64,000 nt of DNA, taken from Candidatus Harrisonbacteria bacterium RIFCSPHIGHO2_02_FULL_40_20. Its GTDB lineage: Bacteria > Patescibacteriota > Minisyncoccia > UBA6257 > WO2-44-18. The stretch spans positions 3,157 through 67,156 of the forward strand of contig MHJF01000006.1 of the NCBI GenBank assembly GCA_001818675.1, written 5' to 3'. The notes under the pieces were generated by a model that saw only the letters and a list, made by a program, of their open reading frames with translations, was not told the origin of the DNA and made no database searches. Shown here one piece after another: positions 1-60,518 of this stretch (position 1 is its first letter; the number at the start of each line of letters is the position of its first letter). The position numbers and the translations under genes were made by a program.

Positions 1-419
1 CCTGGATTAAGCCGGATGTTATGAACGGCGTTAATCGGGGAATTGTTAGCAGAATGCCAGCTGATACCATCAAGGGTTGGCATGTTCGGGTGACTGAATG
101 GAATACTCTTAGATTTGTTGTGCGCAGTGGAAATTATGACGTTGCTTGGACTGACACCCATCCGATTTCTGCCGGTCAATGGTATCAAGTCGTGGCTGTT
201 TGGGACGGCGCCAAGCCAATGATTTATGTTAATGGTGTTTTAGATTCAGCTTATGATATTGCAGGCGGACTTAGCACGATTGGTACCGCTGGCCATGCTT
301 ATATTGGTTATGATGAAACTAATAACCGATATTTTGATGGCGCGATTGACGAGGTAAGAATTTATAATAGGGCATTATCAGCTCAAGAAGTTTCCAATCT
401 TTTTAACGCAGAAAACTAA
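1..419 (+). CDS. Laminin-G/concanavalin-A-like lectin domain protein (C-terminal part; 5' end outside window)
   Basis: ORF runs to the window edge with no upstream stop; the C-terminal motif DEVRIYNRALSAQEV is typical of the LamG_3 fold. Confidence 0.5.
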   Translation, partial: WIKPDVMNGVNRGIVSRMPADTIKGWHVRVTEWNTLRFVVRSGNYDVAWTDTHPISAGQWYQVVAVWDGAKPMIYVNGVLDSAYDIAGGLSTIGTAGHAYIGYDETNNRYFDGAIDEVRIYNRALSAQEVSNLFNAEN

Positions 420-429
420 GATTTTTAAT

Positions 430-456
430 ATCTATGGACATCCGATGTCCATAGAT
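430..456. repeat. REP-like palindrome tctatggacatcCgatgtccataga flanking the Y1 transposase
   Basis: 25-nt near-perfect palindrome; its exact reverse complement is found at 1207-1231 on the other side of the gene. Confidence 0.7.
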
Positions 457-459
457 TCT

Positions 460-1173
460 TTATTCTAATAAAGTTTCTTTTATATCTTCTAAATTGAGGT
501 GTTTAATCCATTCTTTTATATTTTTTCCATATTCGGTAGTTCCACCAAAATAGTTTAATAAAAATTCTCTTTGGGTAACGGATTGAAAATTTTTCTTTCC
601 TAAATAATCTATATGGCTACTCCAACGGTAATTTTCTAAAAATTGTATTGCTTTGTTATAATCTTTGATTTTTCTTTCTCTCCATTCCGGCGCTATTAAA
701 TCAAGGGGATTTAAATGAATATAATAGGGGATATGTATGAAATGAGCCTCTTGGTTGATGTGCACTAGTTTATATCTACCCTGAAATAAGGCACCGGATC
801 TTTGATATTTTTCATTGAAATATTTTGCATAACCCATATTAATTTTCTTCATAAACTGAGAAATTCCCTGATCATTCAGCGGTCTTAATAAAAGGTGATA
901 ATGATTATTCATTAAACAGAAAGCCAGAATTTCTACAAGTAATTTTCTTGGCTTTCTTTTCGAATCAATATATGGACGTCCGATGTCCATATATTGATTT
1001 TTCTTGTTTTGGCGGAAAAAGTAATTAACATTATTAGCGGACTCTAAATTATTAAATTCAAATAAGTCGTGAATAAATCGGAATCGATCAGAATCATCAA
1101 GAAACAGTTTTCTTTTATCCACGCCCCTATTAAGAACATGGTAAATATTACCAGCCGTACTCTTTCTTTTCAT
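460..1173 (-). CDS. IS200/IS605-family Y1 (HuH) transposase, REP-associated tyrosine transposase (RAYT)-like
   Basis: HuH motif NHYHLLL, conserved YHVLNRG N-terminus, C-terminal GRYK tyrosine region (COG1943-like); flanked by inverted REP hairpins. Confidence 0.7.
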   Translation of the reverse strand: MKRKSTAGNIYHVLNRGVDKRKLFLDDSDRFRFIHDLFEFNNLESANNVNYFFRQNKKNQYMDIGRPYIDSKRKPRKLLVEILAFCLMNNHYHLLLRPLNDQGISQFMKKINMGYAKYFNEKYQRSGALFQGRYKLVHINQEAHFIHIPYYIHLNPLDLIAPEWRERKIKDYNKAIQFLENYRWSSHIDYLGKKNFQSVTQREFLLNYFGGTTEYGKNIKEWIKHLNLEDIKETLLE

Positions 1174-1206
1174 ATAATATGATTATATATATTTTATAAA
1201 ATAAAT

Positions 1207-1231
1207 CTATGGACATCGGATGTCCATAGAT
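1207..1231. repeat. REP-like palindrome, inverted copy of 430-456
   Basis: tctatggacatcGgatgtccataga; 9 nt downstream of the 3' end of tRNA-Ala(CGC). Confidence 0.7.
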
Positions 1232-1239
1232 TTGAAATT

Positions 1240-1310
1240 TGGACCTAGGCGGAATTGAACCGCCGTCTCGGCAATGCGAATGCCGCGTTCTGCCACTGAA
1301 CCATAGGCCC
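1240..1310 (-). tRNA. tRNA-Ala (anticodon CGC)
   Basis: Cloverleaf read on the minus strand: acceptor GGGCCTA/TAGGTCC with G3:U70, anticodon loop TTCGCAT. Confidence 0.8.
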
Positions 1311-9092: not shown

Positions 9093-11615
9093 ATGTTTAG
9101 ATGGTTTTTAAAAATTTTTAAATCTGACAATAAATATGTCCGCAATTTAGTTGCGGCTATTAACGCAATAGAGCCGGAGATTAAAGAATTTTCTAATGAA
9201 CGGCTGTTAGAAGATTCTCAAAGTTTAAGGCGACTGATTCAAGATAAGAAAATGAATTTAGAAGAGGCGTTGCCTCGGGCTTTTGCTTTGGTTCGGGAAT
9301 CGGCTAAAAGAACTTTAAATCAGCGGCATTTTGATGTTCAGTTAATGGCGGGCATTGCGTTGCATCAAGGAAGAATCGCGGAAATGAGAACCGGTGAAGG
9401 AAAAACTTTAGCCGCTACCGCGCCTGCTTATTTAAACGCGCTTTTTGGAAAAGGCGTGCATGTGGTAACGGTTAATGAATATCTGGCAAAAAGAGATGCG
9501 GTATGGATGGGGCAAATTTATCACGCGCTTGGCTTGAGGGTTTCTTGTTTAATTCACGAGGGAGCTTTGGCATATGACCCTTCTTATATTAAACAGTCAG
9601 CCGATGACCTGATTGATAAAGAGCGGGATATTACCGGAAGTTTTTTAGTTCAGGAAGAATTTTTAAGGCCGATTAGTCGTCGCGAAGCTTATTTAGCAGA
9701 CATTACTTATGGCACTAATCATGAGTTTGGTTTTGATTATCTGCGCGATAATCTTGTCCATCGTTTAGAAGATCAAGTGCAGGGCGGCCGCCGTTATTTT
9801 GCGATTGTTGACGAAGTGGATAGCATTTTAATTGATGAAGCTCGGACACCGCTGATTATTTCCGCCCCGGATACGGAATCCAGCCAATTCTATAAAGTTT
9901 TTGCCCGTGTTGCGCAGAATCTTGAGCCGGATACGGATTATTTGGTAGATGAAAAATTAAAAACCGCCGATATTACTCAAGGCGGCATTGATAAAGTGGA
10001 ACAACAGCTTCGGATTAAAGATTTATTTAGCGCGGAGAATTTGCGACTGACGCATTACTTGCAGGAAAGTTTGCGAGCCAAGGCTTTATTTTTGAAAGAC
10101 CGAGATTATGTTGTTAAAGATGGAGAGGTGATTATTGTTGATCAATTTACTGGCCGGATGATGCTGGGTAGGCGTTATTCTGGTGGGTTACATCAGGCAA
10201 TTGAGGCTAAAGAGGGTTTAACCGTGAATCAAGAGTCCCGCACTTATGCTCAAATTTCTATCCAAAATTATTTTCGGCTTTATGAAAAATTATCCGGTAT
10301 GACTGGCACAGCGCAAACTTCGGCGGAAGAATTTGATAAAGTTTATGGTTTGGAAGTTGTGAGTATTCCGACTAATAAAATAATGATTAGAAAAGCTTTG
10401 CCAGACACGATTTATAAAACTATAGAAGCTAAGTATCAGGCGATCGCCCAAGAAATAAAAGCCAGGCATAAAGCTGGCCAGCCGGTTTTAGTTGGCACTA
10501 TTTCTATTGAAAAGAACGAATATCTTTCTAAGATTTTAAAACAAGAGGGCGTGCCTCATGAAATGTTGAACGCCAAAAATCATGAACGGGAAGGTTCTAT
10601 TATTGCGCAAGCTGGCAAACCGGGCGCGGTTACGGTAGCAACGAATATGGCTGGCCGCGGCGTGGATATTATTTTGGGCGGCAATCCTCCGGAAATTTTA
10701 GAGTCGCAGAAGATAAAAGATTTAGGTGGTTTATTTGTTATTGGCACAGAACGGCATGATTCGCGGCGCATTGATAATCAGCTTCGCGGACGCGCAGGTC
10801 GGCAAGGTGATCCTGGATCTTCGCAATTCTTTTTATCTTTGGAGGATGATTTGATGAGGATTTTTGGCGGCGACAAACTTAAAAGTATGATGCAGTGGTT
10901 GAAAGTTCCGGACGATATGCCTATTGCTTCTAAGTCAGTTTCTCGCGCAATTTCGCAAGCGCAATCAAAAGTTGAAGGAATGAACTTTGACGCGCGTAAA
11001 CATTTATTGGAATATGACGATGTTTTAAATAAGCAACGTTTGGCGATTTATTTCAAAAGGCAAGATATTTTGGAGAATGGTGTTGTTGCGAGGATTCCAA
11101 AAAGCGAGGGAGAAGCTTTGCTTGCTGGCAGGCAGGAAATTAATATTAGCGGTGATGAAAATTCGCCCCGTAACAATGAGCCACTATCCCATGGAATAGC
11201 ACGGCAAATTTTAGGGATGTTGGATTTATTATGGATGAATCATTTGGAAAATATGGAAGCTTTGCGGGAGTCGGTTCGTTTGCGCGCGTATGGTCAGCAT
11301 GATCCGTTAGTTGAATACAGGCGTGAGGGGCATTTGCTTTTCCAACAACTGTTGGCGGATTTTGATAAGTGGCTAAAACAATCCGCTGAAGGTGGATTAT
11401 TCGCCCGACCAGATTTAAAAGATAAATCTGGTTTAGGGATGGAGGAAAACAGAGAAAATTTGCAAACTATGACTAATAACAATGACAATAACAAAATACC
11501 GAATCCGGATGTCATTAGTCATTCGTCATCGGTTATTATTAATAATAAGGTAGGTCGCAATGATCCTTGTCCCTGCGGCAGCGGGAAAAAGTATAAGAGG
11601 TGTCATGGAAAATAA
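9093..11615 (+). CDS. secA: preprotein translocase subunit SecA
   Basis: DEAD-like motor, preprotein cross-linking domain and C-terminal zinc finger CPCGSGKKYKRCHG. Confidence 0.95.
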   Translation: MFRWFLKIFKSDNKYVRNLVAAINAIEPEIKEFSNERLLEDSQSLRRLIQDKKMNLEEALPRAFALVRESAKRTLNQRHFDVQLMAGIALHQGRIAEMRTGEGKTLAATAPAYLNALFGKGVHVVTVNEYLAKRDAVWMGQIYHALGLRVSCLIHEGALAYDPSYIKQSADDLIDKERDITGSFLVQEEFLRPISRREAYLADITYGTNHEFGFDYLRDNLVHRLEDQVQGGRRYFAIVDEVDSILIDEARTPLIISAPDTESSQFYKVFARVAQNLEPDTDYLVDEKLKTADITQGGIDKVEQQLRIKDLFSAENLRLTHYLQESLRAKALFLKDRDYVVKDGEVIIVDQFTGRMMLGRRYSGGLHQAIEAKEGLTVNQESRTYAQISIQNYFRLYEKLSGMTGTAQTSAEEFDKVYGLEVVSIPTNKIMIRKALPDTIYKTIEAKYQAIAQEIKARHKAGQPVLVGTISIEKNEYLSKILKQEGVPHEMLNAKNHEREGSIIAQAGKPGAVTVATNMAGRGVDIILGGNPPEILESQKIKDLGGLFVIGTERHDSRRIDNQLRGRAGRQGDPGSSQFFLSLEDDLMRIFGGDKLKSMMQWLKVPDDMPIASKSVSRAISQAQSKVEGMNFDARKHLLEYDDVLNKQRLAIYFKRQDILENGVVARIPKSEGEALLAGRQEINISGDENSPRNNEPLSHGIARQILGMLDLLWMNHLENMEALRESVRLRAYGQHDPLVEYRREGHLLFQQLLADFDKWLKQSAEGGLFARPDLKDKSGLGMEENRENLQTMTNNNDNNKIPNPDVISHSSSVIINNKVGRNDPCPCGSGKKYKRCHGK

Positions 11616-12032: not shown

Positions 12033-12179
12033 TTAGAAATATTGTGTATCGTTAGAAAAATCATATGGTTTGTAAGTGCGAGAAAAACGGTAATTTTCTA
12101 GATGGGCGGCAAACTTCAAAAGATTCCAAATTGCAATAAATGGATTAAAGAGCTTCAGGATATAACGCAGATATTTCAT
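12033..12179 (-). CDS. small hypothetical protein (48 aa), absent from the ORF track
   Basis: GGAG Shine-Dalgarno 8 nt upstream of the ATG; MKYLRYILKLFNPFIAIWNLLKF; coding potential only. Confidence 0.25.
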   Translation of the reverse strand: MKYLRYILKLFNPFIAIWNLLKFAAHLENYRFSRTYKPYDFSNDTQYF

Positions 12180-15099: not shown

Positions 15100-15687
15100 A
15101 TGCGTAGATTGTTTGATATCACTGGCGCTTTGGTGGGGTTAGCAATAACTTTTCCTTTTTGGCCTCTGATAGTTTTAGCGATTAAAATAGATTCACGGGG
15201 CCCGGCTCTTGTTCGTTTAGCGCGCGTGAGTAGGGGGAAATTGATTTATGTGTATAAATTTCGTTCTATGGTTGCCTGCGCTCATCTTTTGAAGAATAAG
15301 TTTTTTAATCTTAATGAGCGCCAAGACGGGCCATTTTTTAAGATTAAACAGGATCCGAGATTAACTCGCGTGGGTAAAATCATTAGAAAATTTCGTTTAG
15401 ATGAGCTTCCGCAATTCTTTAATGTTTTAAAAGGAGATTTGGCGCTAGTTGGCCCTCGGCCTCATGAGCCTGAAGAAGTCATTCATTATCCGGATGAATA
15501 CAAACATTTAATTTTGGCAAAAGCTGGCCTTACCGGTTTGTCACAGGTGAATGGCGCTTCTAGTTTGCCATTTTTATCCGAACTTAATTTAGACCATTAT
15601 TATGTTAAAAATCGAACTTTGGGTATGGATATTCAGATATTAAAGAAGACGATCGGGGTATTTTTTACCGATTCTACAGCGGTTTGA
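15100..15687 (+). CDS. undecaprenyl-phosphate sugar phosphotransferase (bacterial sugar transferase, WbaP/PglC C-terminal domain type)
   Basis: DELPQFFNVLKGDLALVGPRP motif; N-terminal TM helix; start taken at MRRLFDITG. Confidence 0.8.
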   Translation: MRRLFDITGALVGLAITFPFWPLIVLAIKIDSRGPALVRLARVSRGKLIYVYKFRSMVACAHLLKNKFFNLNERQDGPFFKIKQDPRLTRVGKIIRKFRLDELPQFFNVLKGDLALVGPRPHEPEEVIHYPDEYKHLILAKAGLTGLSQVNGASSLPFLSELNLDHYYVKNRTLGMDIQILKKTIGVFFTDSTAV

Positions 15688-17870: not shown

Positions 17871-17926
17871 TGGACCTACGGGGAGTCGAACCTCGACTTT
17901 CCCGATGTCCATCGGGACGTAACATC
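17871..17926 (-). pseudogene. tRNA-Ala-like 3' fragment (T-arm plus acceptor arm) containing a REP-like hairpin
   Basis: GTTCGACTCCCCGTAGGTCCA matches 18 of 21 positions of the 3' end of the adjacent tRNA-Ala; contains the hairpin tcccgatggacatcggga, which shares the REP core cgatgtccat; no 5' half is present. Confidence 0.45.
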
Positions 17927-17930
17927 TTTT

Positions 17931-18704: not shown

Positions 18705-18776
18705 GCCCTCGTAATTCAATGGACAGAATAGCTCCGTCCTAAGGAGAAAATGACTGTTCGATTCAGTCCGAGGGCA
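18705..18776 (+). tRNA. tRNA-Arg (anticodon CCT)
   Basis: Acceptor GCCCTCG/CGAGGGC, anticodon loop GTCCTAA, T-loop TTCGATT. Confidence 0.75.
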
Positions 18777-18778
18777 AA

Positions 18779-18832
18779 GGCTAAATCTGCCAGCTGGCGG
18801 ATCGCCCGATTGCCAATAGCGGTTTAGGGAGG
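18779..18832 (+). promoter_or_regulatory. partial copy of the recurrent ggctaaatc...ccagctggcgg...gtttagggagg motif in the tRNA-Arg/tRNA-Ser spacer
   Basis: First 32 nt match the motif upstream of 40929 and 55413; 3' end overlaps the 5' end of tRNA-Ser. Confidence 0.5.
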
Positions 18833-18914
18833 GTTGGCAGAGTGGTTTAACGCGCCGCACTCGAAATGCGGTTGGGGAGAAATCCCCTCGGAGGTTCGAA
18901 TCCTCCACCCTCCG
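18828..18914 (+). tRNA. tRNA-Ser (anticodon CGA)
   Basis: Long variable arm; anticodon loop CTCGAAA; acceptor GGAGGGT/ACCCTCC. Confidence 0.8.
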
Positions 18915-40783: not shown

Positions 40784-40866
40784 CAAAATTTTTCGATTCC
40801 TTCATAATTGGCAATTCTCAAATTGCGTGATAAAATTTTGACAGCGGATTTTTGAAAATTAAAAAA

Positions 40867-40924
40867 GGCTAAATCCGCCAGTTGGCGGATCGCCCGATCA
40901 AAACCTCGTTTTGATTTAGGGAGG
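40867..40924 (+). promoter_or_regulatory. 5'-UTR structured motif, copy upstream of the 40929 gene (ggctaaatccgccagttggcggatcgcccgatcaaaacctcgttttgatttagggagg)
   Basis: Matches 55349-55406 at nearly every position; ends 4 nt before the ATG and contains the Shine-Dalgarno sequence. Confidence 0.6.
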
Positions 40925-47047: not shown

Positions 47048-47082
47048 TAAAAGTAAAAGCCCACCGACATTATGTCGGGGGC
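47048..47082. terminator. bidirectional terminator aaaagcccaccgacattatgtcgggggctt
   Basis: Hairpin with the gacat..atgtc core between convergent genes. Confidence 0.55.
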
Positions 47083-55225: not shown

Positions 55226-55348
55226 ATCTTAAATATTGTACAATTTTTAATTTTTAATTTCTAATTTTAGATTAAGAGGCCACTTGATTTTTTAAAAGTT
55301 TTCCGCGAAAATCATTTTAGTAGTTTTCCGCACCTTAATAAATGAAAA

Positions 55349-55406
55349 GGCTAAATCCGCCAACTGGCGGATCGCCCGATCAAAACCTCGTTTTGATTTA
55401 GGGAGG
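55349..55406 (+). promoter_or_regulatory. 5'-UTR structured motif, copy upstream of the 55413 gene
   Basis: ggctaaatccgccaactggcggatcgcccgatcaaaacctcgttttgatttagggagg, 6 nt before the ATG. Confidence 0.6.
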
Positions 55407-57536: not shown

Positions 57537-57748
57537 TATTCTCTATGTGTGTCATTGCGAGGCCATAAAGCCGAAGCCCTGCCTGCCGGCAGGCAGGAAT
57601 CTAACATTAATGTTTTTTGTAAGATCGCCGCGCTCCTTGCGGTCGCTCGCGATGACAAAACAAAATAAGGGAGTTGCCAAATTTATTTTTCAGATTATTA
57701 TTAAGAATAGTCAGTTGAAGCGTACTTTAAAAATAAAATCTTGATTTT

Positions 57749-60422: not shown

Positions 60423-60518
60423 TTGCAAGAAGTGTTTGGTCAGGCAACCGGAGTGTAGTATAACGGCAGTACCTGCCTGCCGGCAGGCAGGCGCGTGTCT
60501 ACCCCGTATCAAAATTAA

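Follow-up and report, generated by a model that had tools for sequence, protein, structure and literature searches.

RAYT proteins and their REP sequences illustrate best how a domesticated transposase can coexist with miniature repeats of its own. How the specificities of protein and hairpin stay matched in such systems is, to our knowledge, poorly understood. In IS200 elements, the 5′ hairpin doubles as a terminator that shields the transposase gene. Class 2 of the Y1 HUH nucleases, which holds the RAYTs, carries the signature Y---NP, whereas IS200 proteins carry Y---Q (PMC6006769), and IS200 copies within one genome are about 99% identical (PMC6006769, Table 1). Subclass 2.1 of Quentin et al. 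2018 has the motifs NH[YF]H, FQ and Y[IV]HLNP and a median length of 238 aa (PMC6006769, Table 1), and corresponds to the TIRYT group of Di Nocera et al. 2013 (PMC3733652) and to Bertels group 1. TIRYT genes have terminal inverted repeats with GGGGWSAS and were reported not to be associated with REP sequences (PMC3733652, PMC6006769). A limited literature search found no relevant paper on RAYT, REP or IS200 systems in Patescibacteria, CPR or Parcubacteria.

The locus that we compare with these systems lies in a 64-kb stretch of DNA, here called the window, from a tiny groundwater member of Candidatus Harrisonbacteria (Patescibacteria/CPR). The Y1 HUH nuclease gene, RAYT/TIRYT-like by its ORF, Pfam match and motifs, occupies 460-1173 on the minus strand and encodes 237 aa, confirming the HuH transposase with NHYHLLL that the earlier note had read from the letters (Pfam Y1_Tnp, PF01797, E 7e-11, 42.7 bits against a cutoff of 23). 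In minus-strand order, a 340-aa MJ0711_N-like gene (2333-1311) comes before tRNA-Ala(cgc) (1240-1310, minus strand), the immediate upstream neighbour of the cassette, which stands outside the system and was correctly placed by that note beside the right-hand hairpin (gap 6-8 nt). Next come the upstream hairpin (arms 1203-1217 and 1219-1233, a 31-nt perfect palindrome centred on G1218 on the plus strand, C on the gene strand), the Y1 gene with a further hairpin in its reading frame (arms 963-980 and 982-999, centre 981, residues ~59-70, NQYMDIGRPYID), and the downstream hairpin (arms 430-442 and 444-456, 27 nt, centre C443), which starts 3 nt past the stop codon. The 3′ end of a Laminin_G_3 (LamG)-domain gene (21-419, plus strand), a convergent neighbour only, stops 10 nt short of the downstream hairpin. 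The Y1 gene is present once in the window, and there is no TnpB gene near it.

We read 24 contigs carrying this exact protein and grouped them by neighbouring genes into ten places, all of which share a common genomic context except the fold-back contig L001. The nine other contigs shown derive from several samples; in them, the locus and its flanks are 99.4-100% identical and the cassette is always present, so that no empty site was seen in the same species. L001 (ERZ27254845 k141_672032) mirrors the whole locus around a point near 12140, most likely an assembly artefact rather than biology.

The Y1 protein carries the HuH motif as H91-Y92-H93 (NHYH at 90-93), FQ at 130-131 and a Y motif that reads Y151-I-H-L-N-P156 (YIHLNP), and residues H91, H93, Y151, N155 and P156 are invariant among 50 homologs. 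Judged by its Y---NP signature, it is a class 2 protein with the RAYTs and not an IS200 protein, and the combination of NHYH, FQ, YIHLNP and a 237-aa length fits the TIRYT-like subclass 2.1 most closely by motifs. REP_Tyr_transpos (NF047646) is its sole NCBIfam match, at 42.6 bits and below the curated cutoff of 80. These features, along with the lack of a nearby TnpB gene and of near-identical copies, bear out the earlier classification of the protein as RAYT-type rather than IS200. Structure does not separate the two: the best 27 matches of the AlphaFold model (pLDDT 75.5) among solved structures are only the IS608, ISDra2 and IS200 transposases and the E. coli RAYT 4ER8 (E from 4e-4), with IS608 TnpA, ISDra2 TnpA and E. 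coli RAYT matching about equally, and a sequence search of solved structures gave a weak ISDra2 match and nothing else. The C-terminal region of the model (143-234) is helical, with no Pfam match to Bac_DnaA_C, HTH_23 or HTH_28 at E <= 0.01. Homologs at 60-73% identity number more than 7,900 and are essentially all from Patescibacteria; the clade comprises 321 gene-hairpin pairs in species-representative genomes and thousands in metagenomes.

The palindromes on either side of the gene (430-456 and 1205-1231, the latter extendable to 1203-1233) are exact reverse complements, as the earlier note described, over 27 nt rather than the 25 nt it gave. They differ from each other in the central base only and, with their own flanks included, match at 94% over 34 nt. 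The third palindrome that had been placed inside the coding sequence is also there, in frame at 968-994 and extendable to 963-999, with one altered base; it encodes YMDIGRPYI, and its single A.C position on the gene strand is a G.T position on the opposite strand. Folded as single-stranded DNA, all three hairpins reach -10 to -14 kcal/mol with z-scores of -6 to -9. The pattern TATGGACATCSGATGTCCATA (21-nt core, <=3 mismatches) occurs 3 times in the 64-kb window against 0.00 expected in 100 shuffles, and a search with the family-skeleton pattern revealed no other copies of the hairpin family there, leaving 62 kb of the window without any further copy.

Each of the three hairpins is followed by a T-rich tail in one direction, on the gene strand for the upstream copy and on the opposite strand for the internal and downstream copies. 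The upstream hairpin looks like a terminator for tRNA-Ala because ATTTTATAAA comes after it on the gene strand, and it also overlaps the likely -35 region of the Y1 gene. On the plus strand, TCTTTATTCT comes after the downstream hairpin, which gives this copy the look of a terminator for the convergent LamG-domain gene. The foot of the hairpin in the window reads (A)AATCT / AGATT(T), and the GT[AG]G guide was absent from the 5′ foot of the hairpins in the window, as was GTAG from the clade-wide skeleton.

The same layout was found across the clade when we sampled 80 homologous loci from species-representative genomes. Nearly every gene is accompanied by two palindromes, one no more than a few tens of bases from the start and the other at the stop or just past it, which match within a locus but differ between genes, with a clear matching flank pair at 69 of 81 loci. 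The gene's own repeat recurs at codons 45-80 in 57/69 cases, compared with 4.5% for the repeats of other loci. The internal palindrome, which had been treated as a curiosity, is present as claimed, but proved to be a near-universal, covarying feature of the clade. Because circularity had to be avoided, we anchored a second test on the protein alignment, fixed at Ile69, and scored 14 pair positions in a 31-nt window: at least 9 of the 14 positions were paired at 67 of 76 loci (88%), and in 0.7% of control windows in the same genes. In this Ile69-anchored alignment, 79% of cells were paired, against 61% when shuffled and 29-41% with a slid partner, and all 14 stem pairs show compensatory changes, with substitutions on both sides. 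Across loci, the in-frame hairpin covaries with the flanking ones.

The peptide encoded by the in-frame hairpin varies freely (YMDIGRPYI, SIVIARRYI, LEVGLPNI and others) and synonymous third positions track the pairing; therefore, the constraint on this copy is at the nucleic acid. Conservation of the peptide as the cause of the internal palindrome was ruled out, as pairing is kept while the peptide varies widely, and a recent REP insertion was ruled out as well, as the segment is homologous in all members of the clade. The hairpin lies in an insert of about 34 residues between the first helix and the HuH strand, seen by comparison with non-Patescibacteria relatives, which forms a low-confidence loop of the AlphaFold model. 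Arg66 may account for the one A.C position in the window's internal copy. The clade-wide skeleton reads AAT.T...GAC.TC.GA.GTC...A.ATT and varies at +-3, +-7 to +-9, +-11 and the centre. Where the centre is asymmetric, as in one subclass (CTTGCGATG), the internal copy almost always points the opposite way to the upstream one, and the downstream copy can take either orientation. Mismatches in internal copies, read on the gene strand, are A.C in 30 cases and G.T in 11, which hints that the opposite strand folds better than the gene strand, a signal too weak to build on.

Copies of the hairpin are also found away from the gene, in agreement with the earlier suggestion that the repeat is not unique to this locus. 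In the same organism, two more copies lie just outside the window: a perfect fourth copy about 340-367 nt before window position 1, between two LamG-domain genes (L003 11513-11541), and a fifth with one mismatch 3.8 kb beyond the window (L003 15003-15035; L002 ~15327-15359), inside a called 620-aa gene on the minus strand. At least 118 metagenome stretches carry the hairpin core; about a quarter of the matches are at Y1 genes and the remaining three quarters are intergenic-like or in frame in long ORFs. Around the homologs, 960 kb of sequence held 25 extra cognate copies (~1 per 38 kb), and a locus's own core was 19 times commoner in distant flanks than the cores of other loci. Within one genome, the hairpin of a paralog was also located on a different contig. 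Dispersed copies are mostly single, and back-to-back inverted doublets resembling REPINs were seen at L131 20281-20331 and in the downstream flanks of L142, L132, L154 and L196. On an unrelated contig of higher GC, with no Y1 gene within its 11 kb, an intergenic region near nusG holds a 35-nt hairpin (L053 9758-9794) with 97% identity to that of the window, which suggests that this hairpin type is common to different organisms.

The association with tRNA-Ala 3′ flanks proposed earlier did not hold: only 5 of 60 homologous loci lie within ~250 nt of a tRNA, the tRNAs are of assorted identity (Lys, Gln, Thr, Glu and Ala), and about 2 such cases are expected by chance by our estimate, so we rejected it as a rule. 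The other hairpins in the window that had been assigned to the family do not belong to it either. The one at 17901-17916 (cccgatgtccatcggg) has only a 10-mer in common with the family and a different stem, and we estimate that ~1-2 such 10-mer matches are expected by chance in 64 kb; the hairpins near 47060 and 49400 have gacat alone in common with it and are GC-rich terminators of the ordinary kind. At 17871-17926, where the earlier note saw a tRNA-Ala 3′ fragment, neither ARAGORN nor Rfam calls a tRNA; the stretch 17871-17930 is a tRNA-like 3′ fragment, with a T arm and a tRNA-Ala-like acceptor end, adjoining tRNA-Ala(ggc).

Two further repeats in the window have copies beside tRNA genes. 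An Rfam scan of the window returned nothing but tRNAs. The first is a 62-nt repeat made of two small hairpins followed by GGGAGG, with three copies (18775-18836, 40863-40924 and 55345-55406) that are 68-97% identical; the copy at 18775-18836 takes in the 3′ end of tRNA-Arg and extends into tRNA-Ser, and that at 40863-40924 begins 79 nt past tRNA-Trp. A possible role for this repeat is that of a shared leader or terminator. The second is a perfect 20-nt GC-rich palindrome, CCTGCCTGCCGGCAGGCAGG, found twice (57578-57597 and 60472-60491) with a variant at 11112-11148. The copy at 60472 is contained in a tRNA-like stretch (~60443-60515), perhaps a disrupted or intron-bearing tRNA, that directly precedes tRNA-Pro.

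We propose that the locus is probably a REPtron-like cassette whose nuclease belongs to a large clade of class-2 Y1 HUH proteins specific to Patescibacteria; the clade is related to the RAYTs, and its motifs bring it nearest to the TIRYT-like subclass 2.1. If the protein acts like E. coli TnpA-REP and IS608 TnpA (PMC3333891, PMC3479197, PMC8266576), it would bind its own 27-31-nt hairpin in single-stranded DNA, and Tyr151 and the His91/His93 metal site would then cut and rejoin the hairpin DNA. Now and then, the nuclease would copy or move hairpins and, over long periods, the entire cassette. Transcripts of tRNA-Ala and of the LamG gene plausibly end at the flanking copies, which would shield the gene from read-through, and the in-frame copy would be kept by selection at the nucleic-acid level. 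Some features speak against this REPtron-like explanation: copy numbers are far below those of classical REP families, the GT[AG]G guide is missing, and the NCBIfam RAYT score falls short of its cutoff.

The notable part of the system is the conserved, covarying in-frame hairpin. The leading ideas are self-regulation, with this copy as the target, and the keeping of a protected reference copy of the substrate. Part of the co-variation could arise, without any function, from gene conversion among three nearby copies, but gene conversion alone is the weaker alternative because the palindrome has long been kept in coding sequence. More tentatively, and with some doubt on our side, the in-frame hairpin might be an obligatory cis element, such that the nuclease gene holds its own substrate within its reading frame. 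It could then serve as a self-target that curbs expression or activity through binding or cutting of the gene or its transcript, or as a selection-protected master copy that regenerates the flanking and dispersed hairpins and keeps them matched to the specificity of the protein. If true, this would be a new coupling of a transposase-like enzyme to its substrate and would explain why one skeleton is found clade-wide, whereas ordinary REPs differ between species.

An explanation without mobility, which we consider unlikely, is that a domesticated host factor is encoded here, with the palindromes as its double-stranded operators, as intrinsic terminators or as both, and with the internal copy acting as an autoregulatory operator or roadblock. 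The palindromes are near-perfect two-fold symmetric sites, and a dimeric protein with a double-stranded operator would account for perfect palindromes just as well; the directional T-rich tails on all three hairpins, the position of the upstream copy over the likely -35 region and the low copy number are also consistent with such a role. A factor of this kind is harder to reconcile with copies lying in frame inside unrelated genes and with gene-specific hairpins scattered over other contigs of the same genome, and the catalytic HuH and Tyr residues, invariant across the clade, would be needless in a pure DNA-binding protein.

It is rather improbable that the locus is a minimal autonomous IS200-type insertion sequence, hairpin-tnpA-hairpin, that moves as a unit with the hairpins as its left and right ends. 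Mobility of a cassette-sized piece is suggested by two related genomes (L187 and L208), which differ by an indel of ~844 nt comprising hairpins and gene upstream of rpmE; this is the one empty site seen, and it separates genomes more distant than the same species. Hairpins at both ends of the gene and a model fold that fits IS608 and ISDra2 TnpA as well as RAYT would suit such an element, but the hairpins that flank the gene are in inverted, not direct, orientation, other hairpins stand alone with no gene beside them, and the Y motif is of class 2. Some genomes do hold 2-3 family members, as a multicopy element might; in eight other genomes, however, the paralogs are 54-72% identical and each has its own hairpin, far from the near-identity of IS200 copies. 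We argue against an IS200-type element because of these divergent paralogs, the one copy in the window, the one genomic context of the contigs shown and the lack of a TnpB gene. Chance palindromes or an assembly artefact, for which only the chimeric fold-back of one locus-bearing contig (L001) could be adduced, can be dismissed, as this reading is refuted by the zero matches expected in shuffles, by the near-identical locus and flanks in nine other contigs from several samples, and by the same layout in dozens of divergent genomes.

Among known systems, IS200/IS605 TnpA (IS608, ISDra2 and Salmonella IS200) appears to share fold and chemistry with the protein described here, and by analogy its end hairpins, which are binding sites of the protein, would correspond to ours. 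Other IS200 features are missing here, namely Y---Q, a length of ~150 aa, near-identical multicopy elements, direct end hairpins and a frequent TnpB. TIRYT/subclass 2.1 is the best match in protein motifs: it has the same NH[YF]H, FQ and Y[IV]HLNP motifs, ~238 aa, low copy number and divergent paralogs (PMC3733652, PMC6006769), and identity to plasmid TIRYT-like members is 22-30% by tblastn and 29-34% by alignment. Such homologs on plasmids of Pseudomonas, Sporomusa, Rhodospirillum and Iodobacter (L209-L212; Proteobacteria and Firmicutes) carry 19-34-nt terminal inverted repeats with GGGGWCAG, as in the published TIRYT consensus, and lack both the internal hairpin copy and the ~34-aa insert. 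The Patescibacteria clade differs from TIRYT genes in using self-complementary hairpins in place of terminal inverted repeats, and no such repeats with GGGGWSAS were found in the window. Subclass 2.1, earlier reported as not REP-associated (PMC6006769), has a hairpin-associated branch.

The E. coli TnpA-REP (RAYT, YafM) REPtron is similar in its organization, with a single-copy class-2 Y1 HUH gene between inverted cognate palindromes (PMC3333891, PMC3479197, PMC8266576). As here, the palindrome is also found elsewhere in the genome, protein and hairpin co-evolve, and distinct pairs coexist; in Patescibacteria, even ultra-small genomes maintain several such systems. The cassette differs from the REPtron in having the skeleton described above instead of a GT[AG]G guide, in its far lower copy numbers, in its longer protein (237 vs 165 aa, and below the NCBIfam RAYT cutoff) and in its obligatory third copy in frame. 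Each natural gene-hairpin pair combines a conserved skeleton, a few variable positions and a copy locked into coding sequence, and this clade would allow a direct test for a code by which protein residues recognize hairpin bases. The in-frame copy has its closest counterpart in RAYT subclass 2.4 of Cyanobacteria and Bacteroidetes, in which a cognate REP is also found within the nuclease gene, with the frame intact and in a surface region (PMC6006769). What sets the Patescibacteria clade apart from subclass 2.4 is that a single hairpin occupies one fixed position before the HuH motif, at 88% of 76 loci, and covaries there with the hairpins that flank the gene.
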